Shown here in pieces: positions 4,813 to 45,327 of a stretch of DNA of 64,000 nt. This DNA is from a bacterium. Its GTDB lineage: Bacteria; Myxococcota_A; Bradymonadia; REDH01. The stretch is from assembly GCA_030427825.1 (NCBI GenBank), contig JAUICO010000006.1, positions 16 through 64,015 of the forward strand, read 5' to 3'. The translations under genes and the position numbers were made by a program. The notes under the pieces were generated by a model. It saw only the letters and a list, made by a program, of their open reading frames with translations, was not told the DNA's origin and ran no database searches. Position 1 is the first letter of the stretch. The number at the start of each line of letters is the position of its first letter.

Positions 4813-6936
4813 TTGATTACATCACGCACACCGACCCTTGCATACGCACTGAAGGACGCCCTCGGCGAGGGCGCGCTGGACCTGCTCCTTGCCGATGCGA
4901 CGCTCGTCGAGGTGTCGTCCGGCGATGAGATTGTGCGCGAAGGCGAGCACGGCGACGCCCTGTATGTCGTGCTTGAAGGGGACGCGATCATCCACCGACA
5001 CAGCGGGGACGGCCGGGATACCGTTGTAGCGAACTGTGGTCCGGGCGAGCACTTCGGAGAAGCCGCGCTCCTGCCCGGACGCAGCCCTCTTCGCAGCGCC
5101 GGCGTGCGGGCGCGAACCCGGATGCGTCTGCTGAGAATCGAACGCGAGCACTTTCAGCGGGCCCTCGCCGCGGACCGTGCGTTCAAGCGACGCCTTGAGG
5201 AGCGAGCGGATTCACACCGGGCCGCTGCAGTTGTACGCAGCTCGGCGCTGCTGGATGCTCTTGGACTCAGCGACAACGAACGCGCCGCATCGATCGCTTT
5301 CGAGCGAGGCACTTCCCTCTTCGGTGCCGGGGAACCCGCGCGTGCGCTGTATTTCGTCATAAGTGGTGCCGTTGAAGTGTACGTCTCTACGGGCGATGGC
5401 GATCATGTGATCAGTACCCTGGGTGGCGGACATTGCTTCGGTGAAGTCGGGCTTCTCGAGGACGCGCCTCGGACCGCCTCGGCGCGCGTCATCGAGGATG
5501 CCCGGCTGCTGGTGATCTCGGCCGAGCACGTGCGCGCCACAATGTCAGAGTCGCCACGTCTCGCGGGCATTTTTCGCGAACTCAAGCGAAGCTACAAGTT
5601 GCCGCGAAGAGGCACGGTGACTCAGTACGTGAATCGCGTTGATGGCCAGGACGCGATTACGACGGTGTATGAGCTTGAGGGCCATAGGAGCGTTGTCGCG
5701 GTCAGATCGATGCGGGGTGAGTCATTCACCGCGCGCGTTGTCGGCGAGACCGCAACGAATAGGCTTCGGTACGCCGATAGGGAACACGGTGTGGAGCGCA
5801 GCCTGGGGTTGAGTGCATCTGGAGCACTCGTCGAACTCGTTGTGCACGGGCCGTGGATCCAACTCAGCGAAGTGTTTCGGTTGCTGCTTGACGGGGTGGA
5901 GAATGACGCCGGACTCACGGCACGGTTCGAAGAAGCAGGCTCGATCGCTTTGGCCGATGTTAACGAGAGCCCGGGCGTACGCTGTGTGTGTGTAGGGGCC
6001 GGCACGTCGGCAGTGATCGAAGCACTGCGGGTCGGCGATGGGAGCTTTTCAGAGCTTCAAGCCGAGACTGGCTGCGGTACCGTTTGCGGGTCCTGCGTGC
6101 CGGCGATTCGTCACTTCGTTGACAACGGCGTGTGGCGGCCGGCGGTGATCAGCGAAGACCGTTTTCTCGCTGAGGGCACGCGCGAGTTTGCAATCAAACC
6201 ACTTGATGGCCCAGCCGAGCGATTCGTCCCGGGACAACACATCGTGCTGTCCGGACTCGTTGACGGTATGTGGGTTCAACGCGCCTACACACTGACAACG
6301 GCGGGCGATCCGGCACCGGAGTATCGGATTGCGGTCAAGCGTGAACCATCGGGCGTGTTCTCGAACTGGCTTTTCTCTGAGGGTGGTCGCGACGCGATTC
6401 TGCAGGTGAGCTCGCCGCGAGGCAGCTTGTGCTGGAGCGCGGACGACCGCCCGACGGTGTGTTTGGTCGCTGGGATTGGCTGCACACCGGCGCTGGCAAT
6501 CGTTGCGGCTCACACGCAGCGCGAGTCGTCGAGTCCGCTGCACGTCGATTACTCGGCAGGCAATCGTGATTCAGCGGCGGCGCTCGACGCGCTCTCGGCG
6601 GCGGCAGAAGCATGCGGGTGCCTCACGCTGCGTACCCGGTTTACGTCGGATGAGGGGCGGATTGATGAGGCCGCAGTGGCTGCCCTGGCTTCGCAGCACC
6701 CGGCGGCGCAATACGTTATCTGCGGGCCGGAATCGTACGCAGGAGTCGTAATGCGCGGCCTCCGACTTGCGGGGGTTTCGGACGCTGCGATCCACACCGA
6801 GTCTTTCGTGCTGCAAAGTGAATCGCGGGCGACGAAGAACGATGGCGGGGGCGCGGACGTCAGGGGTGGCGGCGCGCGTCGTGCCTCACCCGGTGTCCTC
6901 AAGAGTCTGTTGCGAAGCGTGTTCGGCCGCGGCTGA
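4813..6936 (+). CDS. Fusion protein: two tandem cyclic-nucleotide-binding domains, a BFD-like [2Fe-2S]-binding motif, and a ferredoxin-NADP reductase-like FAD/NAD(P)-binding oxidoreductase domain.
   Basis: Two cNMP-binding-like segments (LVEVSSGDEIVREGEHGDALYVVLEGDAII...FGEAALL and SLFGAGEPARALYFVISGAVEVYV...CFGEVGLL). A C-x-C...C-x-x-C cluster (CVCVGAGT...ETGCGTVCGSCVP). An FNR-like RAYTLTT (RxY[ST]) FAD motif and a VCLVAGIGCTPALAIV NAD-binding motif. TTG start. Confidence 0.7.
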   Translation: MITSRTPTLAYALKDALGEGALDLLLADATLVEVSSGDEIVREGEHGDALYVVLEGDAIIHRHSGDGRDTVVANCGPGEHFGEAALLPGRSPLRSAGVRARTRMRLLRIEREHFQRALAADRAFKRRLEERADSHRAAAVVRSSALLDALGLSDNERAASIAFERGTSLFGAGEPARALYFVISGAVEVYVSTGDGDHVISTLGGGHCFGEVGLLEDAPRTASARVIEDARLLVISAEHVRATMSESPRLAGIFRELKRSYKLPRRGTVTQYVNRVDGQDAITTVYELEGHRSVVAVRSMRGESFTARVVGETATNRLRYADREHGVERSLGLSASGALVELVVHGPWIQLSEVFRLLLDGVENDAGLTARFEEAGSIALADVNESPGVRCVCVGAGTSAVIEALRVGDGSFSELQAETGCGTVCGSCVPAIRHFVDNGVWRPAVISEDRFLAEGTREFAIKPLDGPAERFVPGQHIVLSGLVDGMWVQRAYTLTTAGDPAPEYRIAVKREPSGVFSNWLFSEGGRDAILQVSSPRGSLCWSADDRPTVCLVAGIGCTPALAIVAAHTQRESSSPLHVDYSAGNRDSAAALDALSAAAEACGCLTLRTRFTSDEGRIDEAAVAALASQHPAAQYVICGPESYAGVVMRGLRLAGVSDAAIHTESFVLQSESRATKNDGGGADVRGGGARRASPGVLKSLLRSVFGRG

Positions 6937-6945
6937 GAGCCGTTC

Positions 6946-7704
6946 TCAGCCCGCGGCTTCAAGGGGCGCTATTGACACCTCTGTCGTGGGTGCCGGGGTC
7001 TGTTTCATGCGAAAATGCAGGAGGTAGAGGTAGACCAGATCCAACACGAGGATAGTGACACACAGGAAGGTGAGAAAGGCCCAATGCTCAATGTGTGGAT
7101 TCATCAGCGGCAGAAACACGTGGGCACCGATGGCCGTCCCGAGGGTTCCAAGCATCTTGAGCCATGCGCCGGCGACGCTGAGGCCGCGACCATCTTCGCG
7201 TTGAAAGAACGCCCAGATGAAGAGGACGCTCATCACAAGGTTGATGAAGAAGGCGTCGATGAGCGCGAGGCGGTCCTGAAAGGTGATCACGAAGGTCAGC
7301 TGCCCGGCGATGCCGATAACAATCGCCGCCGGCACCCACACACGGAACCACTTTCGCAACCAGTAGTTCTTCTGCATGGCGGCTCCATAGGTCCAAAGCT
7401 GCCAGACCAGCAGGCAGTCGAGCAAGAGCCAGCCCATGTTCAGGGCCGGCCACAGCGTGTTGAAGTTCGGCAGGATCAGATACATCGACTCCCAGCCGAA
7501 GTTCAGGCACATCGCGATCGCCGGCACCGCCGGAGCCTTGTCACGGAATCCTTTCCTGAGAAAGCAGATGTAGGCGAGGATCCATAGCACGCAGCCGAAA
7601 GAGCAGACGAGGTGGTACCAGGCCCAAAGGTCCAGGGCCTCGGGCGGGGCATTCTCAAAGTTTGGAAGATACGCGTTCAACATCGTCTCTGGCTCGCGGC
7701 GCAA
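6946..7704 (-). CDS. Multi-pass integral membrane protein of unknown function.
   Basis: 252-aa ORF with 6-7 hydrophobic helices and many W/F/L residues. No recognisable catalytic motif. Confidence 0.5.
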   Translation of the reverse strand: MRREPETMLNAYLPNFENAPPEALDLWAWYHLVCSFGCVLWILAYICFLRKGFRDKAPAVPAIAMCLNFGWESMYLILPNFNTLWPALNMGWLLLDCLLVWQLWTYGAAMQKNYWLRKWFRVWVPAAIVIGIAGQLTFVITFQDRLALIDAFFINLVMSVLFIWAFFQREDGRGLSVAGAWLKMLGTLGTAIGAHVFLPLMNPHIEHWAFLTFLCVTILVLDLVYLYLLHFRMKQTPAPTTEVSIAPLEAAG

Positions 7705-7840
7705 TCGTGGAGAGGTTTACTATCGTGCGTTATCTCGCGGCGGATGCACCGCGCCGCACAATGATGTCACTTGACCGAAGGGATGAGCATGTACCTGCTC
7801 GCCTCACGCGCGTCACACGATTTGTAGTATTACCCTCTCC

Positions 7841-7920
7841 AGGGAAGCACAGCTTTCCGCCGGGGTTCGAGGGGGTGAAAACCCGCTCGCAGAGCGCGAG
7901 ACAGCGTCTCGCACCCCGCC
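7841..7920 (+). repeat. Copy A (short form, ~80 nt) of a structured three-hairpin intergenic element.
   Basis: gGGAAGCacaGCTTTCC / gggggtGAAAaccc / GCGAGACagcGTCTCGCacc. It shares its order, palindromes and end motifs with the copies at 10215, 13113 (minus) and 13764. Confidence 0.8.
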
Positions 7921-8013
7921 CATGCGACGACACGGGCGCGCACCTCATCAGACACTGGTCGGGGTGGTGCCCCGCTGCTATGTCGACTGCCGATTCGTTG
8001 CTAAGGAGCACGC

Positions 8014-9234
8014 TTGTTACCTGCCAATGCACCGGTCCCGGACCGCTTCAGTCGCCGGGATGAAGCAGCGCGCATGTTCGGCGAGGACGCGCGCCGCTTC
8101 GCACAGTACATGATGCAGGGCGACCCCCTGGCTGATGCGCTCGCGTTGCGGCTGTCGAAGGGGCGAATCGGAGCGTCGCAGGCATTGGTGGACCGCGCGT
8201 TGCGCGAAGGCGTCGACCGACTGGGCGTGATTCCGGGCGAGCTTCGCGCCCTGCTGGATGAAGTTGAGCAGGTTCCGGACTGGGTAGACTTTGACAGAAT
8301 CCACCACGGTGCAGTGGCGGTTCAACGCCTGGGGCCGGCTGCCATGCTGATTCTCTCGGCGTGGTCGCTGATGAACAGCTATCACAGCGGACCGGCAGTC
8401 AAGGCACTGATGTTCACCGGAGAGTTAACGACTCGCGCGCCGCGTCGCCTGGCTGAGACGGGACGATTCGTCACGGAAGTGACGCAGGTGGATGGTCTCA
8501 GACGCTTTGGAAGAGGCCTTGAGATTACGGTGAAGGTACGCATCATGCATGCGCAGGTTCGCCGGATGATTCACGCAGATGCCTCTGTTTGGAATGCCTC
8601 TGCATGGGGCGCGCCGATCAATCAGGCGGACATGCTGGGGACGATTGTCGAGCTGTCTTTCCTGGTGATCGAAGGGGCCCGAAAGCTGGGTTTTCGGTTC
8701 ACAAGGAAGGAGCGCGAGGACATTGTTCACTTGTGGCGCTACGTCGGCCATCTTTCCGGGGTTTCACCCTGGCTGTTGGAGCATCTGGATTCCTACGAGC
8801 GTGGGTGGGAGTTCTCGCAGATGATCCGTATGGTGCAGGCGGGCTCCGACGACGACTCAGTCGCACTCGCGGCTGCGTTGAGAGACGCGAGCTACCAATC
8901 CGTATCAAGCAGGTTTGAGCGGATGATGTTGCCGGTTGTGACTCGACTGCATAACGGCCTAGTCTGGTCATTCAACGGGGATGAGATTGCGCGCGACTTG
9001 AAGACTCCGAACCGAGCGTGGCGGCATGCACGCCTGCCGATACGAGCCGTGATCAGCGTGCTCGAGCTGGTGCGAATATGTGTGCCGGGGATGTCTGCGG
9101 CACTGTCCAGGCGACGAAACGCCGCCGGCCTGGCGCGGATCTCATCGATGCTTGAGAATCGAGAGCCTGCGTTCACCGTGGGTTCGTCGACAGAGCGCCT
9201 TCTCTCGACCACGCCGCACCGGGCGATTGAGTAG
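8014..9234 (+). CDS. DUF2236 / MpaB-like oxygenase-family domain protein (tentative).
   Basis: 406 aa, TTG start 15 nt after AAGGAG. The RIMHAQVRRMIH segment and overall alpha-helical composition recall the DUF2236 family. No other motif identified. Confidence 0.4.
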   Translation: MLPANAPVPDRFSRRDEAARMFGEDARRFAQYMMQGDPLADALALRLSKGRIGASQALVDRALREGVDRLGVIPGELRALLDEVEQVPDWVDFDRIHHGAVAVQRLGPAAMLILSAWSLMNSYHSGPAVKALMFTGELTTRAPRRLAETGRFVTEVTQVDGLRRFGRGLEITVKVRIMHAQVRRMIHADASVWNASAWGAPINQADMLGTIVELSFLVIEGARKLGFRFTRKEREDIVHLWRYVGHLSGVSPWLLEHLDSYERGWEFSQMIRMVQAGSDDDSVALAAALRDASYQSVSSRFERMMLPVVTRLHNGLVWSFNGDEIARDLKTPNRAWRHARLPIRAVISVLELVRICVPGMSAALSRRRNAAGLARISSMLENREPAFTVGSSTERLLSTTPHRAIE

Positions 9235-9325
9235 AACAGCGGCTCCGGGAGTGCCGCTCCGGTATGGCCTGAGCGTCGAGTTGCCCCCGCTTGAGCACTT
9301 GAGCCGAGGCGACTAACGTGGCTGC

Positions 9326-10171
9326 ATGCTCACTCTCGCTCAGCGAATCCAAACACCGCCGCTGAAGTGCCAGGGCATAAAGACGAAGCTCCTGCCTTTC
9401 ATCGCTGCATCGATTGACTGGGATTACGCCGGGACGTGGATTGAACCCTTCGGGGGCTCTGGAGTGGTGGCGCTGAACATCGCGCCGCCGCGGGTTCGCT
9501 ACTCGGACGCGAATCCACATATTGTGAACTTGTATGCCGGGATTCGCGACGGGCGGGTGACGCCGGAGTCGGTACGTGTACACCTTGAACGCGAAGGCGC
9601 ACAGCTTCTCGAAATCGGCGAAAGTCACTACTACGCGATTCGATCGCGATTCAATGCGTCGCATGATGCACACGACTTTATCTTCCTAAATAGGAGCTGT
9701 TTCAACGGCCTGATGCGCTTTAACCGTAGCGGCGGTTTCAACGTTCCTTTCTGCCGCAAGCCGGAGCGATTCCGACCTGCGTACGTCACGCGCATCGTGA
9801 ACCAGGTCGCGGCTATGGCGATGGCGATGCAGCGATCAAGTTGGGAGATCCTTTGTCTGGATTGGAGGGAATGCGTCGCGACCGCCGTCGCCGGCGATCT
9901 TGTGTACATGGATCCGCCGTATATCGGCCGTCACGCTGACTACTACACACAATGGGATGAGAGCGAAGCCCAGGCGCTTGCGGCGTGGGCGCGCAGTGCG
10001 CCCTGCGGATTCGCCTGTTCGATGTGGGCAAAGACGCAATATCGCACCAACACACACCTCGAAGAGGACTGGTCCTGGGCACGCACCGTGACCACGGAGC
10101 ACTTCTTTCATCTGGGCAGCTACGAGAAGCTGCGCGGCGGAGTCACCGAGGCCCTGCTGCTGCCCGCATAG
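9326..10171 (+). CDS. Dam-like (D12 class) N6-adenine DNA methyltransferase, an orphan with no restriction-enzyme partner.
   Basis: EPFGGSG (motif I; E. coli Dam has EPFVGAGSV). FLNRSCFNGLMRFNRSGGFNVPF matches Dam LYLNRYGYNGLCRYNLRGEFNVPF. DPPY catalytic motif (VYMDPPYI). ATG start. GC content slightly below the flanks. Confidence 0.85.
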   Translation: MLTLAQRIQTPPLKCQGIKTKLLPFIAASIDWDYAGTWIEPFGGSGVVALNIAPPRVRYSDANPHIVNLYAGIRDGRVTPESVRVHLEREGAQLLEIGESHYYAIRSRFNASHDAHDFIFLNRSCFNGLMRFNRSGGFNVPFCRKPERFRPAYVTRIVNQVAAMAMAMQRSSWEILCLDWRECVATAVAGDLVYMDPPYIGRHADYYTQWDESEAQALAAWARSAPCGFACSMWAKTQYRTNTHLEEDWSWARTVTTEHFFHLGSYEKLRGGVTEALLLPA

Positions 10172-10214
10172 AACGGCGCACTCAACCCCGACTGCTGCTA
10201 CCAACCCCCCATCA

Positions 10215-10349
10215 GGAAAGCGCAGCTTTCCGCAGGGATTCCAAAGGGTGAAAACCCTTTGGCAGAGCGCGAGAAGCAATCGAGTCCGGTTGCCGGTGGC
10301 AACCGAGCGAGAGCGCTAGTGCTGATCGCGTAGCGAGCAGTCTCGCACC
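10215..10349 (+). repeat. Copy B (long form, ~135 nt) of the structured element.
   Basis: GGAAAGCgcaGCTTTCC / ccaaagggtGAAAaccctttgg / GCGAGA + ~70-nt insert (ccggttgccGGTGgcaaccg and cgcta...tagcg hairpins) + cagTCTCGCacc. ~85% identical to the reverse complement of 13113-13247. Confidence 0.8.
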
Positions 10350-10354
10350 ACGCA

Positions 10355-12037
10355 CTACTCGTCGCTGATCGTCAGCTCGGCGCCCATCAGCACCGGCTTC
10401 ATCACCTTGCCTGAGGCATTGCGCGGAAGTGGTTCTCGTCGAATCTCCCAGTGTGCCGGAATCTTGAAATACGCGAGCTTTGATTCCAGCGCCTGTTTGA
10501 TCTCATCGATATCCGGTGTGGCGCCGGGTAGGGGAACCAGGATGGCCTTGCACTCCTGCCCCAGCTCCTCGTGCGGGACGCCTACGACGGCCACCTCGTC
10601 GATTCCCGGCAGCAGCGCGAGCTGCGCCTCGATCTCTGCAGGGTAGATGTTCTCGCCTCCCCGAATGATCAGATCAGTGCGCCGGGACGCGATGTGCAGT
10701 CGCCCGTCGCGCAGGAAGCCGATGTCGCCGGTGCGCAACCACCGGTCACCGGTGATTCGCTCCGCGGTCGCCTCCGGATTGCGCCAGTAGCCCTGCATGA
10801 CAAGAGGAGAGCGAATCCAGATTTCGCCGATCTCACCGTCTGGCAGGCCGACCCCGTGGTCGTCGCGTATGCTCACCTCCACTGTCGGTAGCGGGCGCCC
10901 CACAGACGTGGGAAACTGTGCGAGCTCGTCGCCGAAAGTGATGGTTGCCAGCGCGCAGGCTTCCGTCAGCCCGTATCCCACGGCAGCGGTGGTTCTCACG
11001 CTCGGCATGCGCGTTTTGAGTTCCGTCATCAGCGCCTCAGAGACCGGTGAGCCGCCGAGCCCGACAAAGCGCATGCTGCTGAGGTCGTATTGGTCGAAGT
11101 CCGGATGAGCGAGGACGCGATGCACCATCGTGGCGGTCGGCCCCCAGCCCGAGACCCGCTCGCGCTGAATGATCTCGAGGATTTCGCCGGCATCGAAGCG
11201 TCCGACGGTCCACACCGTTTTGGCGCCTACGACCATGCGGGTGATAATTCCGGCGTAGAGCCCGGACACATGAAAGAGCGGCGTACTCACCAGGGCGCAG
11301 TTTTCTTCTGTCTGAACCACATCAACACCGCGCAGCTGGTCGAGCATGCTCGCACGTGCGCCGTGAAATATCTGAATCCCGGTCAGAGCAATGATGTTGC
11401 GGTGTGTGGCTACAATGCCCTTCGGTCGCCCGGTCGTGCCGCTGCTGTAGAGAATCGCCGCCGGGTCGTCTTCGTCGATGTGTGTTTGGCAGAGCGCCGC
11501 GTCCATGTGTGGACGGGTCAGGGCGTCAAAGCCCTCTTCAATCACGACCGTCGGACACATCTCTCTCGCTTCGGGAGCCCGCGCCAGTCGCTTGCGATCT
11601 ACGAAGAGGACCTTTGGTACACAGTCTTTCAGAGCAAACAGGATCTCGTCACGCACCCACCAGCCGTTCAGCCCGACAGGGAGAGCGCCGAGGCTGATAG
11701 CGGCCCAGAAAGCGATGACCCACTCCGGCTTGTTTGAGGCCAGAATCGCAACTCGGTCACCCTTTTGAACGCCAAAGCGCTCACGCAATGCGGCCGCGGT
11801 GGCGCACACCAACCGATAATGTTCTGCGTAGGTGATTCTGCGATCGCCGAAGATGACGTATTCGCGTTCACCGAAGCCTGCGCTTGCGGCGAGTACGTCT
11901 CGCAGCGAGCGGTGGCGGCTTCGAAACACAGACATCGGGACACCGGCGACATCTTCGATGTGTGTTTCGAAGTGGCTTCCGGGTGCCAGCAACGCGGCCT
12001 CAATCCCGGCAAGGTCCGCCGCAACGTCAGGTGACAT
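10355..12037 (-). CDS. AMP-dependent synthetase/ligase (acyl-CoA synthetase family).
   Basis: YSSGTTGRPKG AMP-binding signature. ~560-aa two-domain adenylate-forming enzyme layout. Its start overlaps the upstream AKR stop by 11 nt. Confidence 0.85.
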   Translation of the reverse strand: MSPDVAADLAGIEAALLAPGSHFETHIEDVAGVPMSVFRSRHRSLRDVLAASAGFGEREYVIFGDRRITYAEHYRLVCATAAALRERFGVQKGDRVAILASNKPEWVIAFWAAISLGALPVGLNGWWVRDEILFALKDCVPKVLFVDRKRLARAPEAREMCPTVVIEEGFDALTRPHMDAALCQTHIDEDDPAAILYSSGTTGRPKGIVATHRNIIALTGIQIFHGARASMLDQLRGVDVVQTEENCALVSTPLFHVSGLYAGIITRMVVGAKTVWTVGRFDAGEILEIIQRERVSGWGPTATMVHRVLAHPDFDQYDLSSMRFVGLGGSPVSEALMTELKTRMPSVRTTAAVGYGLTEACALATITFGDELAQFPTSVGRPLPTVEVSIRDDHGVGLPDGEIGEIWIRSPLVMQGYWRNPEATAERITGDRWLRTGDIGFLRDGRLHIASRRTDLIIRGGENIYPAEIEAQLALLPGIDEVAVVGVPHEELGQECKAILVPLPGATPDIDEIKQALESKLAYFKIPAHWEIRREPLPRNASGKVMKPVLMGAELTISDE

Positions 12038-13019
12038 CGTTGCCGATCAGCATCACCTCTTCGGTGCGGTCCGTGGCAGGTGGCGGTGTCGGCCACATGT
12101 CTGAGATCTCCTGATACAGGTCGTCGCTGATTCGATAGTCCGCGCCGTCGAGAAGCGGGCGCATCTGCTCAACGGTGCGGGCACCGATGATGGGGGCTGT
12201 CACCGCCGGGTGGGTGCGCGCCCACGCCACGGCCAATGTCGCGGGGTGCACGCCGGCCTTGTTTGCGATCCCGACAAACTGTTCAGCGGCGGCGTAATAG
12301 TGCGGGTCCGAATACCGCGCCCTGTACATTTTGTTTGACACCAGGCGCCCCGAAGGCGGTCGCAGGTCTTTGCCGTACTTGCCGGTAAGCAATCCACCGG
12401 CGAGGGGGCCGTAGGCAAGTACGCCGAGTCCCTCGGACTGCGCCATCGGCAGAATCTCTACTTCGGCCTGGCGCTTCACCGCGCTGTACATAGGCTGAGT
12501 GCAAACCGGCCGGGCCCAGCCGTACTTCTCACACATGTCGACGGCCTTCTGCGTCTGCCAGGCCGAAAAGTTGCTGACCGCCGGGTAGAGGATCTTTCCC
12601 TGCCGAACGAGGTCGTCCACCGCCCGCATCGTCTCGTCGAGAGCGGTCATGCTGTCGTAGCGGTGCAGGAAGAAGACATCGATGTAGTCGGTCCCAAGAC
12701 GCCTGAGGCTGGCTTCAACAGCCCGCACCAGATGGTAGCGCGACAGCCCCCAGTCATTCGGTCCCTTTCCGGTGGGAAAGTACGCCTTGGTGGTCAGCAC
12801 GATGTCATCCCGCGACCGCCCGATCAGCTTGCCAAGCAGCAGTTCACTGCGCCCCTTCCCGTAGATATCGGCGCAGTCGAAGGTGTTGATCCCGGCGTCC
12901 ATCGCCGCCCGAAACAGAGCGGCCGAAGCCTGGTCGTCTGCGTCGCCGCCGAAGGCCATCGTACCGAATACCAGCGCCGATACTTTGACGCCCGTGCGCC
13001 CCAGCAGCTTGTACTGCAT
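12027..13019 (-). CDS. Aldo/keto reductase. The true start is the ATG at 13019; the listed ORF has a 186-aa spurious extension.
   Basis: MQYKLLGRTGVKVSALVFGTMAFGG...DTFDCADIYG...LHRYD is the AKR signature. First gene of an operon with the acyl-CoA synthetase. Confidence 0.85.
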   Translation of the reverse strand: MQYKLLGRTGVKVSALVFGTMAFGGDADDQASAALFRAAMDAGINTFDCADIYGKGRSELLLGKLIGRSRDDIVLTTKAYFPTGKGPNDWGLSRYHLVRAVEASLRRLGTDYIDVFFLHRYDSMTALDETMRAVDDLVRQGKILYPAVSNFSAWQTQKAVDMCEKYGWARPVCTQPMYSAVKRQAEVEILPMAQSEGLGVLAYGPLAGGLLTGKYGKDLRPPSGRLVSNKMYRARYSDPHYYAAAEQFVGIANKAGVHPATLAVAWARTHPAVTAPIIGARTVEQMRPLLDGADYRISDDLYQEISDMWPTPPPATDRTEEVMLIGNDVT

Positions 13020-13112
13020 CGTCAGTTCCCCAGGTTCGAAATTGGTGTGCGCAACAGCTACACGATCCGAAGTCGCCGGGGAATGCCGCCGCGCGATCGG
13101 GTGCTTACGCGA

Positions 13113-13247
13113 AGTTGCGAGACTGCTCGCTGCGCGATCAGGACTACCGCTTTCGCGCGGTTGCCACCGGCAACCGGGCTCAATTGCTTCTCGCGCTCTG
13201 CAAAGGGGCTTTCGCCCCTTTGAACCCCGGCGGAAAGCTTCGCTTTC
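13113..13247 (-). repeat. Copy C (long form, minus orientation) of the structured element.
   Basis: The reverse complement reads GGAAAGCgaaGCTTTCC / caaaggggcGAAAgcccctttg / GCGAGAagcaattgagcccggttgccggtggcaaccg...cagTCTCGCaa. It is in the sense orientation for the AKR operon and ends ~96 nt before the AKR ATG. Confidence 0.8.
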
Positions 13248-13374
13248 CTGAAGAGCGTCTTGAGCTGCGGACACTCCTGAGAATAGCAGTGGCCGAGCTT
13301 CGAGAATGTGACGTCGAGCACTATAGCGGCAATCATCTTGCGCGAGTGCGAATCGAACTACTGAGGAGACCCTG

Positions 13375-13722
13375 ATGGCGTGGCAGATTGTTCGAGTGGT
13401 CGTGAGTGTGGCGGTGATCATTGCGGTGAGCGAGGTGGCTTCCCGCAGCTCGACCCTGGGTGCGGTGCTGGCGTCGATCCCCCTGGTCAGCGTCCTGGGC
13501 ATGATGTGGCTGTACCTGGACACCGGCGAGACGGAAACGGTGGCGGCTCTGAGCCGTGACATCGTCTGGCTGGTCATCCCCTCACTTGTCCTCTTTGTTC
13601 TGCTGCCGATCCTGCTTGAGCGCGATTGGGGCTTCTGGACCGCTCTGGCGACGTCGATCGCGGCAACGGTGGGATGCTACCTGCTCACCATCGCCGCGAT
13701 GAGCCGACTTCGAGGTGGGTGA
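13375..13722 (+). CDS. Small hydrophobic membrane protein (3-4 TM helices) of unknown function.
   Basis: 115 aa, essentially all hydrophobic helices. No motif. Confidence 0.45.
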   Translation: MAWQIVRVVVSVAVIIAVSEVASRSSTLGAVLASIPLVSVLGMMWLYLDTGETETVAALSRDIVWLVIPSLVLFVLLPILLERDWGFWTALATSIAATVGCYLLTIAAMSRLRGG

Positions 13723-13763
13723 TTCCAGGCGCCCACAATCATCCGACCCGAAAAACCACCAAC

Positions 13764-13838
13764 GGAAAGCGTAGCTTTCCGTGGGGTGCAGGGGCATGCG
13801 CCCCTGCCGGGAGCGCGAGGGCAGCGCCCTCGCACCCC
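13764..13838 (+). repeat. Copy D (short form) of the structured element.
   Basis: GGAAAGCgtaGCTTTCC / gcaggggcatgcgcccctgc / GCGAGGGCagcGCCCTCGCacc. The stems of hairpins 2 and 3 differ from copy A but remain self-complementary. Confidence 0.75.
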
Positions 13839-13971
13839 CACGCCGCTACTCAGAGCGCCACTCAGATTTGACCCGGTGGGCGTGTCGATCTAGCTGCCAT
13901 GTACACTCGCACGATCGGGACCGGCGCTGCCAGGCGCGGGGGACACGTGTGGCCAGACCCCGGGTTTTGGA

Positions 13972-16527
13972 ATGACAGTCGCCAGACTACTGCTCGCTAC
14001 GTCAGCGGCAATGCTCTTCGCATTGATGGGAGCTGCGCATGCGGCGTGCCCGGATCAGAACCTCGGTTCTCAGCTGGGAACGGTGGCGACGGGTTCTACA
14101 TGTGATGCGTTGAATGACGACGCCGGCAGCTGCGGGACGGTGAATGGGACGGATGAAGATGTCGCATTCGTTTGGACGGCGCCCGAGGCCGGCACCTACA
14201 CTTTTGCGACCCTCGGCTCGAGCTACGACACGGTAATCTACGTGCGCGACGGCGAGTGTGGCAGCACGGAGCTGGCCTGCGACGACGACACGGCGGACGG
14301 GACCCTGTCGCTCATCAGCGATCTGCCACTCGCGGCGGGTCAGACCGTCACGATTCATCTGGACGGCTACAGCGGGTGCGGAAACTACTCACTGACGATT
14401 GAGAATACGACGACGCCACCCTGCGCCGATGAGAACATCGGCTCGGCTCTTGGCGCGGTCTCCTCCGGGACCACCTGTGGGCTGGGAGACGTCATTGAGG
14501 GAAGCTGTGACAGCGGAAGCGGTGGCGAGGAGCGGATCATCGCGTGGACCGCGCCGCAGTCCGGCGACTACACTTTCAGCCTCGCCGGCTCCTCGTACGA
14601 TACGATTCTGTCGCTTCGCAACGGCGCATGTGACGGCGTGGAGCTCGGTTGCGATGATGACGGCATCGACATCGGTGGTGCATCGCGGCTCAGCGATGTG
14701 GCTCTGAGCGCGGGCCAGGAGATCTTCATCGTTGTCGATGGGTACACCGGCTGTGGCAGTTACTCGCTGAACATCTCCGGGAACTTCCCGGCCCCGTGTC
14801 CGGGCACCGACCTTGGCAGCGCGGTGGGCAACGGAGTGGCGGGCGGCACTACCGGCGGGACCTCGGGCATGACCTCGGGCTCCTTTGGAGACTGTTCCGG
14901 ATCGACCGGACCGGAGGCATCCTATCTTTGGACTGCACCGGCTACAGGCACCTACAGCTTCAGCACAGACAACGGCTCGACCAACTTCGATACAGTGCTC
15001 TATCTTCGCGCGGTCGGATGTTCGGGCGCGGTAATCGCGTGCAGCGACGATGAAGACCCGGGCGGCTTCTTTGGCGGCGGTAACTCGCGGTCGTCGATCT
15101 CGGGAATCAATCTCAGCGGCGGACAGCAGGTGGTGATTGTCGTCGACGGATACGACAGCACTGAGAGCGGTTCATTCGCCCTCGACATTGGCGGCGGCTG
15201 GTGCGGCGACGGCACCATTCAGGCAGGGGAAGAGTGCGACGGCGCCGGTACCGTGAACATCTCCGGTCAGTCCGACTGCGCGACGCTGGTGCCGGGTTCA
15301 TCAGGTGTTGTTGTTTGCGGCGAGACCGGAATCAGCGGTTGCCGGAGAGACACCAGCGGGTGCTCGGTGACCTGCACACCGAGCACAGAAGTGTGCGACG
15401 GGCTGGACAACGACTGCAATGACACCGTCGATGATGGCGGCTCGGCGTTGTGCAGCGACCCGCCAAACGCAAGCGGTGTGTGCAACGGATCTGCCGGCTG
15501 TGGGCTGATCTGCAACTCGGGCTTCTTTGACGGCAACGGCGACGTATCCGACGGATGCGAGAGTTCGTCGTGCCAACCGACGAACGGCGGCGTCGAAGTG
15601 TGTGATGGTTTGGACAATGATTGTGATGGTACCAATGACAATGGGGGCAACGCGCTGTGTGTAGACCCGGCAAACGCGACCGCAGTGTGCAACGGAGCAG
15701 CTGGGTGTGCGTTGGTTTGTGACAATGGGTTTGTCGACGCGAACGCTGATGCATCGGACGGCTGCGAAGTCGCGGTGCTCACGGACAGTGACGGGGATCA
15801 GGTACCCGATGCAAGTGACAACTGCCCCTTTACTGCGAACGTCGACCAAACGGACACAGATGGGGACGGCGTCGGTGACGCCTGTGACACCGTGGGCCCG
15901 GTAGACAGCGACGGTGACGGCATCAGCGACGAGAACGACAACTGCCCGCTGAACAGCAACCCGGGTCAGGAAGACAGCGACGGCGACGGCGCCGGCGACA
16001 TCTGCGACACGGGGGACCCGCCGGACGGCGACGGCGACGGCATCGCTGACGCAAACGACAACTGCCCCCTCGTCGCGAACGCGGATCAGGCAGACGACGA
16101 CAACGATGGCGTCGGAAATGTATGCGACACGACGGGCCCTGCGGCGGACACGGACGGCGACGGCGTCGTCGATTCCGAGGACAACTGCGTTGCTGCTTTT
16201 AATCCCGGGCAGGAAGACAGCGACTTCGATGGTATTGGCGATGTCTGCGATACAGGCACCCCCGGGGGCGATGCGGACGGCGACGGCGTGCCCGACGCTA
16301 CCGACAATTGTGTTCAGGTTCCCAATACCAGACAGACAGACACGGATCGCGACGGTATCGGCGACGCCTGTGACACGAACAACAACGCAGGTGGTGGCGG
16401 ATCGCGGCCGTCGGGAACGCGGGTGCGCGGCGGCTCCCTGTTTGGTTGTGCGTCATCGCAGGCGCCGGCCTCGGGCGTCGCGCTCCTGCTGATCGGTCTG
16501 CTCTGTGTGGTCAGACGTTTGAGGTGA
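13972..16527 (+). CDS. Large secreted multi-repeat protein with a MYXO-CTERM-like sorting tail.
   Basis: Signal peptide (MTVARLLLATSAAMLFALMGAAHA). Four ~125-aa N-terminal repeats (CPDQNLGS...GSSYDT...CDDD...GYSGCGNYSL). CGDG...EECD and CDGLDNDC(N/D)D cysteine repeats (Myxococcus-type / MopE-like). About ten thrombospondin-type-3-like Ca-binding repeats (DSDGDGI(A/S)DENDNCP). C-terminal GCASSQAPASGVALLLIGLLCVVRRLR. Confidence 0.75.
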   Translation: MTVARLLLATSAAMLFALMGAAHAACPDQNLGSQLGTVATGSTCDALNDDAGSCGTVNGTDEDVAFVWTAPEAGTYTFATLGSSYDTVIYVRDGECGSTELACDDDTADGTLSLISDLPLAAGQTVTIHLDGYSGCGNYSLTIENTTTPPCADENIGSALGAVSSGTTCGLGDVIEGSCDSGSGGEERIIAWTAPQSGDYTFSLAGSSYDTILSLRNGACDGVELGCDDDGIDIGGASRLSDVALSAGQEIFIVVDGYTGCGSYSLNISGNFPAPCPGTDLGSAVGNGVAGGTTGGTSGMTSGSFGDCSGSTGPEASYLWTAPATGTYSFSTDNGSTNFDTVLYLRAVGCSGAVIACSDDEDPGGFFGGGNSRSSISGINLSGGQQVVIVVDGYDSTESGSFALDIGGGWCGDGTIQAGEECDGAGTVNISGQSDCATLVPGSSGVVVCGETGISGCRRDTSGCSVTCTPSTEVCDGLDNDCNDTVDDGGSALCSDPPNASGVCNGSAGCGLICNSGFFDGNGDVSDGCESSSCQPTNGGVEVCDGLDNDCDGTNDNGGNALCVDPANATAVCNGAAGCALVCDNGFVDANADASDGCEVAVLTDSDGDQVPDASDNCPFTANVDQTDTDGDGVGDACDTVGPVDSDGDGISDENDNCPLNSNPGQEDSDGDGAGDICDTGDPPDGDGDGIADANDNCPLVANADQADDDNDGVGNVCDTTGPAADTDGDGVVDSEDNCVAAFNPGQEDSDFDGIGDVCDTGTPGGDADGDGVPDATDNCVQVPNTRQTDTDRDGIGDACDTNNNAGGGGSRPSGTRVRGGSLFGCASSQAPASGVALLLIGLLCVVRRLR

Positions 16528-40217: not shown

Positions 40218-40292
40218 ACTCGACCCCCCCAAAGGGTCAAGGGAACTTCGTTCCCTTGCGGGGGTGCAGGGGGCAGAGCCCCCGCCCACGCC
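40218..40292. repeat. GC-rich double-hairpin element in the 5' region of the cytochrome gene.
   Basis: CAAGGGAAC-ttcg-GTTCCCTTG (9-bp stem) followed by GGGGGcagagCCCCC. Possibly a distant relative of the 7.8-13.9 kb element family (shared ccaaagggt and gcagagc strings). Confidence 0.4.
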
Positions 40293-40315
40293 TGCGCCAT
40301 CACGGAGGTCTACAT

Positions 40316-44217: not shown

Positions 44218-45327
44218 TCAGCTGTTGCGGTTCATCCGGCCTTCCGCGATGCGCGGCAGGTCGTTTGCGACGAAGGCATCCACCTTGCGGACCGCGTACT
44301 CGACGACTTTTTCGCGAAGCTGTTCGCGGAGCACGTCAGAGATGGCTTCTTTGACGAGGCCGGGCACGACTTCGCGCACGATGGCTCGGAGTTCTTCGCG
44401 AGACACAACGATCTGGTCGGCGGGTACGGCGGGTGCTGCCGGGGCCGGGGCAACGGGTGCGGCGGGTGCGGCGGGCACCTGCGCGACCGGGACCTGCGCG
44501 ACGGGAGCCGCGGCGACGGGAGCCGCGGCGATGGGCGTCGGGGGCCTGGGCGGTACCTGAGCCGGGGGCCGCGGGGGAGCCGCGGGGGTTGCGGGAACGG
44601 TCGGGGTCGGGGGGAGGCCCGGAGCGGCCGATACAGCCGGCGCCTCGCTCGCTGCGGCCGCGGAATCGTCGCTGCTTTCGCCGTCGCTGCGGCCTTCGTC
44701 GTCTACGGCAGGCGCCTGGCCTGTGGCGATGTCGTCCGTGCCTGCTGCGGCCGCGGAATCGTCGCTGCTCGTTTCATCGGCGGACGCTGCTGCAGGCGCA
44801 TCGGTTTCTGCGGGAGCAGCGGGTGTTACGGAGGGCACCTGGACCGTGCCGACCTGATCGGTCACGACGGTCGCCGCAGCTTCCGCAGCTTCCGGAGCTT
44901 CCGGAGCTTCCGGAGCTTCTGCGGCTTCTTCCGGTGCGGCTGCGCTTTCTGCCTGCGGAGATGTGCTCTGCAGGGCGGCGACCGCATCCAGCAGATCCTC
45001 CGTGCGGAACGGCTTTTTCAGCTTTGCCGATGCGCCGCAGTCGTTGAACGCGCTCTCATCGAGGCCGTGGTGGTCTCCGTAGAGCAGCAGCACGGCGGTG
45101 CTGCCGAGCTCGGACGTGGAACGAATCGCGCGCGCGAGGTCGTATCCGCTGCGGCCGGGGAGGTTGTAGTCGACGATGGCGACGGCGGGGCTGTGGTCGA
45201 GGGCGGCTCGAAGGCCTGCCTCCGCGGTATCCGCGGTGACGACCTCTTTGCCAGAGCCGTGAAAGGCCCACTCAACAACCGTGCAAACGGTTCGGCTGTC
45301 GTCGACGATCAGGATCGTATCGGTCAT
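44218..45327 (-). CDS. Response regulator with an N-terminal receiver domain, a ~200-aa Pro/Ala/Glu-rich disordered linker and a short conserved C-terminal helical domain (RomR-like architecture).
   Basis: [22 protein letters not shown]...[21 protein letters not shown] is a CheY-like receiver. The linker has [27 protein letters not shown] and similar motifs. C-terminal [39 protein letters not shown]. Confidence 0.7.
44440..44960. repeat. Coding tandem and dispersed short DNA repeats inside the response-regulator linker.
   Basis: ggagcttcc x4 (44885-44920). gcgacgggagccgcg x2. A ~25-nt repeat ctgcggccgcggaatcgtcgctgct at ~44651 and ~44741. gcggcgggtgcggcgggc. Confidence 0.7.

Follow-up and report, generated by a model that had tools for sequence, protein, structure and literature searches.

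The 64-kb stretch of contig JAUICO010000006.1 analyzed here (the window) is ordinary chromosomal DNA from an uncultured Myxococcota-like organism and contains, within 6 kb, four copies of a non-coding element of 80-150 bases that is composed of several hairpins. These copies, A to D, constitute a new family of small structured repeats. They share the order of a first hairpin (hairpin 1), a second (P2), a short GAGC tag and a third hairpin (P3), they keep stems paired through compensated changes, and they are absent from the homologous genes of relatives. The explanation that we favor, at a probability of roughly 40%, is that of a lineage-specific, modular, structured intergenic repeat in the manner of BOX, ERIC or bcr1, which would include a hairpin module of mobile elements, have spread locally and act as stem-loops in untranslated regions (UTRs). 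We read the copies as duplicated units because they are discrete, have unrelated flanks and occupy every type of gap between genes, and we liken them to BOX and bcr1 because the insert found in two of them folds independently, P2 is compensated and the neighboring genes are functionally unrelated. Likewise, we regard the element as a composite and not as one indivisible structure because its tag and P3, and in copy D also P2, are common to plasmids and phages of other phyla.

Layout of the four copies and compensatory change

Copies A (7829..7925), B (10203..10350) and D (13751..13846) lie on the plus strand and copy C (13110..13261) on the minus strand. A first-pass annotation, made from the letters of the window alone, had placed four copies at these sites, in this order and orientation, and was right to do so: a covariance model built from the short-form core of the four copies (R1) assigns 92.2 bits to A, 74.5 to D, 63.4 to C and 61.8 to B, with the next match in the window at 18.5 bits, and the hairpin 1 pattern GGAAAGC-N3-GCTTTCC, with at most two mismatches, occurs four times where 0.21 are expected, a count reached by none of 100 shuffles. 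Each copy folds more stably than its dinucleotide shuffles (z = -3.4 to -4.9), and 10 of the 27 perfect hairpins in the window with stems of at least 7 bp sit in the four copies, the remaining window being at background level. All copies stop sharply: similarity ends at the element boundaries, which are accurate to a few nt only, and the flanks are unrelated.

A pyrimidine-rich lead, which reads ACCCTCTCCA in A and ACGCTCTTCA in C, opens the element about 10 nt before hairpin 1. Hairpin 1 has a 7-bp stem, invariant except for one G.T pair, and a free 3-nt loop; it reads GGGAAGC-aca-GCTTTCC in A (7842..7858), which has the G.T pair, GGAAAGC-gca-GCTTTCC in B (10215..10231), GGAAAGC-gaa-GCTTTCC in C (13232..13248) and GGAAAGC-gta-GCTTTCC in D (13764..13780), where it extends to 9 bp (13762-13782). 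P2 comprises 8-9 bp and retains, in A, B and C, the GAAA loop already noted in the first pass: CGAGGGGGT-gaaa-ACCCGCTCG in A (7868..7889; cgagggggt/acccgctcg, with a GNRA loop), CCAAAGGGT-gaaa-ACCCTTTGG in B (10241..10262) and CAAAGGGGC-gaaa-GCCCCTTTG in C (13201..13222), as compared with GCAGGGGC-atgc-GCCCCTGC in D (13788..13807). The earlier description of P2 stems that differ between copies and yet stay complementary also stands, except that P2 of A is not a 4-bp stem but a 9-bp stem with one G.G mismatch, and that P2 of D has 8 bp.

P2 is followed by the tag, CAGAGC in A-C and GGGAGC in D, and then by P3, whose loop is AGC. The five basal pairs of P3, GCGAG/CTCGC, never vary and its upper pairs covary, which restricts the co-varying stem previously ascribed to this hairpin to its upper part. 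Tag and P3 together occupy 7890..7912 in A, with P3 as GCGAGAC-agc-GTCTCGC, and 13809..13833 in D, with P3 as GCGAGGGC-agc-GCCCTCGC. In B and C, an insert with two further hairpins sits at the top of P3 and folds independently; this long form had been recognized before, with an insert estimated at ~70 nt that is in fact ~58 nt long. Here, the stretch from the tag (CAGAGC) through GCGAGA and the insert to a terminal hairpin, GCGAG-cagt-CTCGC, spans 10263..10346 in B (terminal hairpin at 10333-10346) and 13117..13200 in C (terminal hairpin at 13117-13130). The insert of B holds the hairpin CGGTTGCC-ggt-GGCAACCG (10287-10305) and a small GNRA-type hairpin, that of C a hairpin at 13158-13176 and a GCGCGAAAGCG hairpin. 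As in a BOX-like repeat, short (A, D) and long (B, C) forms thus differ by one two-hairpin insert at the same point of P3. P2 has the GNRA loop GAAA in three copies, and the loop of the insert hairpin, GAAA or GAGA, is of this type as well. Together, B and C make up an inverted repeat of 136 nt, 88% complementary, that brackets an operon of an aldo-keto reductase and an acyl-CoA synthetase gene. Lastly, a closing stem, P1 (GGGGT/ACCCC), surrounds P2 and P3 in A and D; in C it needs two G.U pairs, B is without it, and RNAalifold does not recover it.

In the alignment of the core, 93% of the cells pair. Seven pairs are changed on both sides, compared with 2.7 +/- 1.1 in shuffles (0 of 500 reach seven) and 0-2 in slid controls; with four sequences, the formal significance of such covariation is weak, statistics of the R-scape type are powerless, and the relatedness of the copies can inflate the shuffle control. 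P2 holds five of the seven, with compensatory changes at five of its nine pairs, and it is also where the columns that vary among A-C are concentrated (8 of 18, vs 5 of 46 elsewhere; Fisher p=0.005). P2 varies on both sides while its pairing is kept, and therefore its sequence is free and its structure constrained. In hairpin 1, the tag and the base of P3, it is the sequence that is constrained. The first-pass annotation had taken the pattern as suggestive of selection on structure, be it that of an RNA or of a DNA palindrome bound by a protein, rather than of simple duplication. The compensation is real and concentrated in P2, but the copies are nonetheless duplicated units with sharp ends and unrelated flanks.

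The match at 18.5 bits (E=0.03), at 40237..40299 on the plus strand, is a possible degenerate fifth copy of uncertain membership and homology. It consists of CAAGGGAAC-ttc-GTTCCCTTG followed by GGGGTGCAGGGGGC-aga-GCCCCC, the latter like D, lacks both tag and P3, and lies between two minus-strand genes. It resembles the 5' half of D, with a different, fully complementary sequence in the hairpin 1 stem; the gap that holds it is absent in two relatives, where the flanking genes overlap (L005, L006).

A tagged hairpin shared with plasmids and phages

The first-pass annotation had not recognized the motif, and an Rfam search agrees: Rfam 15 yields nothing at gathering score in the 64 kb and nothing relevant at E<=10 in 7500-14200. 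A pattern that requires hairpin 1, GGAAAGCNNNGCTTTCCG-N20-45-GAGCGCGAG, has one chance match, in coding sequence, in the genomes of 185,579 species (GTDB representatives) and none in JGI metagenomes. A relaxed pattern has two matches in IMG/VR, both by chance and in coding sequence, and none of the ten metagenome matches of a pattern without hairpin 1 is recognized by R1. The scan of Myxococcota for more copies that had been proposed with the first description came out negative, as R1 finds no match in ~200 kb from the nearest sampled relatives. This sequence includes MpaB-family loci (L014-L017) and acyl-CoA synthetase loci (L010-L012), where the homologs are 54-59% identical and of uncertain orthology. 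A conserved leader of the downstream genes was rejected, as it is missing at these homologous loci. A break of a Logan unitig inside copy B, considered as a sign of repetition, is uninformative, since the other end of the unitig breaks within a gene.

The earlier annotation missed that tag and P3, together with P2 in the case of D, are shared with plasmids and phages of other phyla. This module was first found by low-stringency BLAST of copy D against plasmids and can be written as GGGAGC-GCGAGGGN-loop-NCCCTCGC. Copy D carries the canonical form of the plasmid and phage-contig hairpin, GGGAGC-GCGAGGGN-loop-NCCCTCG(C), exactly, and A-C a derived form, CAGAGC-GCGAGAC...; the tag is (G/C)(G/A)GAGC in every instance. 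From P2 to P3, D is 90-92% identical over 48 nt to two Gluconobacter sphaericus plasmids (E=7e-10 for the 92% match, 3e-8 for the other), at L028 3001-3049 (pSJF2-c) and L029 3001-3049 (pSJF2-d). The plasmid sequence reads GCAGGAGCC-tgc-GGCTCCTGC CGGGAGC GCGAGGGC-agc-GCCCTCG, with a P2 that is homologous to that of D and altered on both sides, and with TTTT after P3; it is located between a WGR-domain gene and a gene for a 193-aa tyrosine recombinase, upstream of parA, copG and repA. Identity of this kind over 48 nt implies either horizontal spread or a very strong constraint on a non-coding stretch. The modules of A-C have no significant plasmid match.

Tag and P3 alone are present on a Methylocystis plasmid and, 88% identical to it over 41 nt, in a viral contig beside an IS256 transposase gene. 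In this contig (L031 5255-5345; IMG/VR 3300037258_001049), the tagged hairpin lies ~25 nt past the stop of the transposase gene, which is of the IS256/Mutator family, and is preceded by nested GNRA-capped hairpins that include the 11-mer GCGCGAAAGCG, also present in the insert of copy C. We considered the hairpin as the end of an IS256-family element and rejected this; the viral contig stops too soon, and the closest transposases on plasmids reach no more than 52% identity. In IMG/VR, 8 of the 10 matches of the pattern GGGAGCGCGAG-N9-CTCGCA carry the tagged hairpin, L031 among them. All eight sites are true hairpins of 8-9 bp, of which the pattern fixes just 5 bp, and the top pair alternates between C-G and G-C. 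The phage form, GGGAGC-GCGAGGGG-aat-CCCCTCGC, occurs at L034 8246-8271, L032 9378-9403 and L040 402-427 (each on the minus strand) as well as in L033, L036, L037 and L039, and in L034, L036, L037 and L039 it comes after a small hairpin that covaries, GSCGC-aac-GCGSC. In the three annotated contigs (L034, L032 and L040), an HNH endonuclease gene or the large-terminase/portal module follows closely on the strand of the hairpin, with evident start codons 15-45 nt 3' of the latter. Each phage contig has one tagged hairpin, and four of the eight sites are less than 400 nt from a contig end; the hairpin may be a cos-proximal or late-leader element. The tag of A-C, CAGAGC, gives only chance matches without hairpins in viral contigs, and cultured phages gave no match.

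A phage-type hairpin also sits within a run of other hairpins on plasmid p2 of Agrobacterium leguminum (NZ_CP119974.1 107354-107474; L049 3955-4075). On 69 Rhizobiales plasmids, of which 57 are conjugative, this region of ~115 nt is conserved (72-89% identity); with 70 places in 69 plasmid records, it occurs essentially once on each and is almost always unannotated. Its neighbors in the transfer and establishment region are traG, WGR, DUF736, DUF1173, thermonuclease, toprim and ArdC-like genes, and further members are found in L051-L059. Ten members align as H1, H2, tag, H3 and H4, and RNAalifold recovers all four hairpins; in some copies, H3 contains G.U pairs (TGAGGGG/CCCCTTG). A model built from the Rhizobiales plasmid copies alone (R2; H1-H2-tag-H3-H4) finds the element of phage contig L034 over its full length (22.4 bits, E=2.7e-4), which is why we treat the plasmid and phage elements as one family. 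The same model misses the window copies (D scores 7.0 bits with E=2.8, and A-C are not listed). The window element thus lies outside the plasmid/phage family and yet contains the central module of that family. Rfam has no match at the plasmid or phage sites, and we found no literature on a hairpin at these positions. To our knowledge, no description of the ~115-nt Rhizobiales plasmid/phage element has been published. This non-coding motif, almost always unannotated and outside Rfam, recurs at a constant place on at least 69 Rhizobiales plasmids and, in phage contigs, shortly before the HNH/terminase genes.

These locations lend weight to a different explanation of the window copies, which we nevertheless consider rather unlikely. 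In it, the GAGC-tagged hairpin would be a DNA recognition site that, extruded as a cruciform or in single-stranded form, is bound or cut by an enzyme acting in trans. Such an enzyme could be, for example, an HUH/Y1 transposase, in analogy to repetitive extragenic palindromic (REP) sequences and their RAYT transposases, a primase or the machinery of single-strand promoters, a nuclease associated with the terminase, or a recombinase, and the window copies would have been amplified or be hitch-hiking. A short conserved 5' tag followed at once by a perfect palindrome of 7-9 bp, whose 3-nt loop is free, corresponds to the layout of REPs (PMC3733652), even if the tag is GAGC and not GTAG or CGTC. 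Tag and basal stem are invariant, with variable loop and top pairs, which also fits. The same holds for the location of the module, which on plasmids lies near traG, DUF736, toprim and WGR genes of the transfer and establishment regions and in phages just before the HNH/terminase genes, the usual place of cos sites, and for its neighbors in Gluconobacter (a tyrosine recombinase gene) and in the viral contig (an IS256 transposase); the 64 kb of the window, however, hold no gene for a recombinase or a transposase, RAYT and IS200 types included. Triloop hairpins and strand-symmetric folding suit DNA, and so does the inverted pair B/C around an operon, but the G.U pairs in H3 of the plasmids are A.C mismatches on the other strand, so that at most one strand could be active. 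Against a recombinase in particular, the 3-nt spacer is too short for tyrosine-recombinase core sites.

A broader proposal, of which we are equally doubtful, is that the GAGC-tagged hairpin is the site of one trans-acting factor, either an RNA-binding regulator or a DNA enzyme that works on extruded or single-stranded hairpins, and that the plasmid, phage and myxobacterial elements are three architectures of one undescribed class of cis-acting element. If so, conjugative plasmids would use the tagged hairpin in their establishment region, phages at the start of their packaging module and certain chromosomes at other places, and the cluster in the window would be its chromosomal, multi-copy form. 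The occurrence of the motif in phages, plasmids and chromosomes across phyla implies either a factor common to hosts and mobile elements that reads the motif, or a very small mobile unit.

Genomic setting and possible roles

The copies occupy all four sizeable gaps in 7.7-14 kb: two divergent, one convergent and one tandem (gene starts are inferred from open reading frames and ribosome-binding sites). Copy A lies in the divergent gap between genes for a Pyr4-like membrane terpene cyclase (6946-7704, minus strand) and an MpaB/Lcp-family oxygenase (8014-9234, plus strand), ending 94 nt before the TTG start of the latter, which is preceded by AAGGAG. Copy B, in the convergent gap, starts 42 nt past the stop of a D12-class adenine methyltransferase gene (9326-10171, plus strand), and at its 3' end borders directly on the stop of the acyl-CoA synthetase gene (10355-12037, minus strand); that B supplies this stop codon is ruled out, as the C-terminus of the synthetase is native. 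The methyltransferase, a Dam-like N6-adenine DNA methyltransferase, has no restriction partner in sight. Copy C, in the second divergent gap, is 97 nt upstream of the start of the aldo-keto reductase gene (12027-13016, minus strand). Copy D, in the tandem gap, lies 42 nt past the stop of a gene for a 115-aa membrane protein (13375-13722, plus strand) and 134 nt before a gene for a secreted protein with thrombospondin type 3 (TSP3) repeats (13972-16527, plus strand). This protein has 851 aa, and its tandem calcium-binding repeats are encoded at 15217-16379 with periods of ~51, 69 and 120-123 nt.

The genes that flank the copies are functionally unrelated to each other. The divergent cyclase/oxygenase pair (6946-9234) has the acyl-CoA synthetase, the aldo-keto reductase and a MATE exporter nearby, and this region may be a small terpenoid or lipid-modifying gene cluster. 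Such a cluster would be the substance of another explanation, which strikes us as improbable, namely that the element is a dedicated cis-regulatory leader of a local regulon that coordinates the adjacent operons of the cluster. P1, P2 and P3 would form a three-way junction that binds a protein or ligand as RNA, hairpin 1 would be the operator of a dimeric factor, or both. The neighbors named above would be in keeping with this, and so would the presence of exactly one copy in each sizeable gap of 7.7-14 kb and none elsewhere in the window, and the position of A, C and D 94-134 nt upstream of start codons in sense orientation; orientation is, however, uninformative in divergent and convergent gaps, and B lies between two convergent stops with no gene downstream, its hairpins still perfect. 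Hairpin 1, a 7-3-7 palindrome with invariant arms and a free spacer, is operator-like, but no gene for a DNA-binding regulator is adjacent. The junction CAGAGC is invariant in A-C and the P2 loop is a GNRA loop, as might be expected of a folded leader; on the other side, P1 is absent in B and not recovered by RNAalifold, the long form has 58 nt more within the would-be aptamer than the short form, and the relatives' homologs of the downstream genes have no such leader.

Several clustered intergenic copies with a conserved structure could also be paralogous small RNA (sRNA) genes with promoters of their own that act in trans, and a myxobacterial sRNA with three stem-loops and paralogs, Pxr, is known (PMC5684412, PMC5568312). 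We regard this as very improbable: no promoter-like site flanks any copy, and the sole terminator-like site, hairpin 1 of D followed by a T-run, is on the opposite strand. A conserved single-stranded seed is lacking, and the variable part is a stem rather than a loop. Rfam, which we assume to include Pxr, shows no match.

For the favored reading, that of a BOX-like repeat, we propose the following course of events. The element would have been assembled from palindromic modules, namely hairpin 1, P2, the GAGC-tagged P3 and, optionally, the two-hairpin insert, at least one of which (tag and P3, in D also P2) is common to plasmid and phage DNA. It would then have seeded the four adjacent gaps by duplication or insertion at the DNA level and not by inheritance of a conserved gene leader. 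Co-transcribed with its neighbors as 5', 3' or intercistronic untranslated RNA, its stem-loops would be selected in RNA as generic determinants of transcript stability, processing or end formation, and not as a ligand sensor. The copies with their sharp ends, the modular build, the compensated stems, the kinship with DNA of mobile elements and the lack of the element at homologous genes of relatives are observed, and transcription, the effect at the RNA level and the mode of spread are inferred. Four adjacent transcription units probably have a post-transcriptional or DNA-level feature in common.

Several observations weigh against this reading. Dispersed repeats are not as a rule so tightly packed, whereas the four copies fall within 6 of 64 kb (p about 0.003 if placed at random) and the other 58 kb of the window are free of them. 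The genes of the 64-kb window include no transposase, integrase, recombinase, phage, RAYT or IS200 gene. Terminal inverted repeats are absent, as ACCCTCTCCAGG... at one end has no complementarity to ...CTCGCACC at the other (P1, the sole candidate, lies internal to hairpin 1 and is missing in B), and inspection by eye of the four boundary pairs, which are defined to within a few nt, revealed no consistent target-site duplication. The tagged hairpin elsewhere is essentially single per replicon and in a fixed place, which is the behavior of a functional site and not of a selfish repeat, and the arms of hairpin 1 and the tag, invariant as they are, resemble a site recognized by its sequence more than a generic stem-loop. 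A role in RNA, in turn, is at odds with antisense strands that fold at least as stably as the sense strands and with the lack of a U-tract after the last hairpin of any copy on the sense strand. The GNRA loops and three G.U pairs on the sense strand are the sole hints toward a sense-strand RNA.

Some further assignments were tried and set aside. Folding energy does not assign a strand, as there is no asymmetry, and a scan for sigma-70 promoters or terminators remained at chance level, with D hairpin 1 on the opposite strand as the only result of the terminator scan. No sigma-54 or extracytoplasmic function-type promoter was seen by eye in the element. A genomic island is ruled out, as the window has neither a compositional anomaly nor mobile-element genes. 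The window encodes PurL, LeuS, ValS and TPR proteins, and its nearest homologs are at most 70% (ValS), 59% (acyl-CoA synthetase) and 54% (MpaB-family protein) identical. Two other features of the window were noted. An 8-bp hairpin, GGCTGAGA-gccgt-TCTCAGCC (6931-6951), sits exactly between two convergent genes, shows no relation to the element and is likely a bidirectional terminator. A perfect 26-nt direct repeat, GCTGCGGCCGCGGAATCGTCGCTGCT, at 44651-44676 and 44744-44769 (93 nt spacing), falls into the most GC-rich kilobase of the window, in the region of a response-regulator open reading frame.

Comparison with known systems

Riboswitch-like leaders with a three-way junction resemble A and D, which, ~100 nt before a start codon, can be folded into two hairpins, one with a GNRA cap, that are enclosed by a closing stem. 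Unlike such leaders, the element is not conserved upstream of homologous genes, has one copy between two stops and has a closing stem that is not conserved.

REPs are palindromes of 20-40 bp with a GTAG or CGTC tetranucleotide at their end (PMC3733652). They are numerous and scattered across a genome that also encodes a RAYT, an IS200-type Y1 transposase whose gene REPs often flank. The P3 module, a tag that abuts a palindrome of 20-30 nt, is similar to them, and the whole element is a mosaic of palindromic units, as are bacterial interspersed mosaic elements (PMC3733652, PMC2817692). However, its units share one orientation and do not alternate, the whole element measures 80-150 nt, and the window has no RAYT gene; with GAGC in place of GTAG or CGTC as its tag, it does not qualify as a canonical REP. 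Nor is it a canonical miniature inverted-repeat transposable element, as terminal inverted repeats and target duplications are both lacking. The Rhizobiales plasmid/phage element has the same tagged hairpin, GGGGAGCG-CGAGGG..CCCTCG, directly after another hairpin and is likewise a multi-hairpin non-coding unit outside Rfam, but it has no counterpart of hairpin 1 or of the insert of B and C, and its H1, H2 and H4 have none in the window.

BOX elements are intergenic, shorter than 200 nt and composed of boxA-boxB(n)-boxC, of which boxB folds independently, and they are co-transcribed as 5' or 3' extensions of operons (PMC3049150). The window element shares with the BOX of Streptococcus pneumoniae that it is small, strongly folded and modular, with an optional internal module that gives rise to short and long forms. 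The likeness is architectural only, without sequence similarity: a genome holds about a hundred BOX copies, which are dispersed and have ends that pair with each other, whereas here four clustered copies are known in a 64-kb window, with a weak closing stem that does not enclose hairpin 1. ERIC and bcr1 are ~127-155 nt long; ERIC is co-transcribed and alters mRNA decay depending on its orientation, and bcr1 is a transcribed repeat whose RNA structure is kept by compensatory changes (PMC3184786). The bcr1 repeat is flanked by 5-bp direct repeats, and the enterobacterial repeats of the ERIC/IRU type have terminal inverted repeats and TA duplications, neither of which is seen here, and there is no sequence similarity. 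Like bcr1 of the Bacillus cereus group, the window element preserves its stems through compensatory changes, in this case in P2, and it is a clean, small example of structure preserved in this way.

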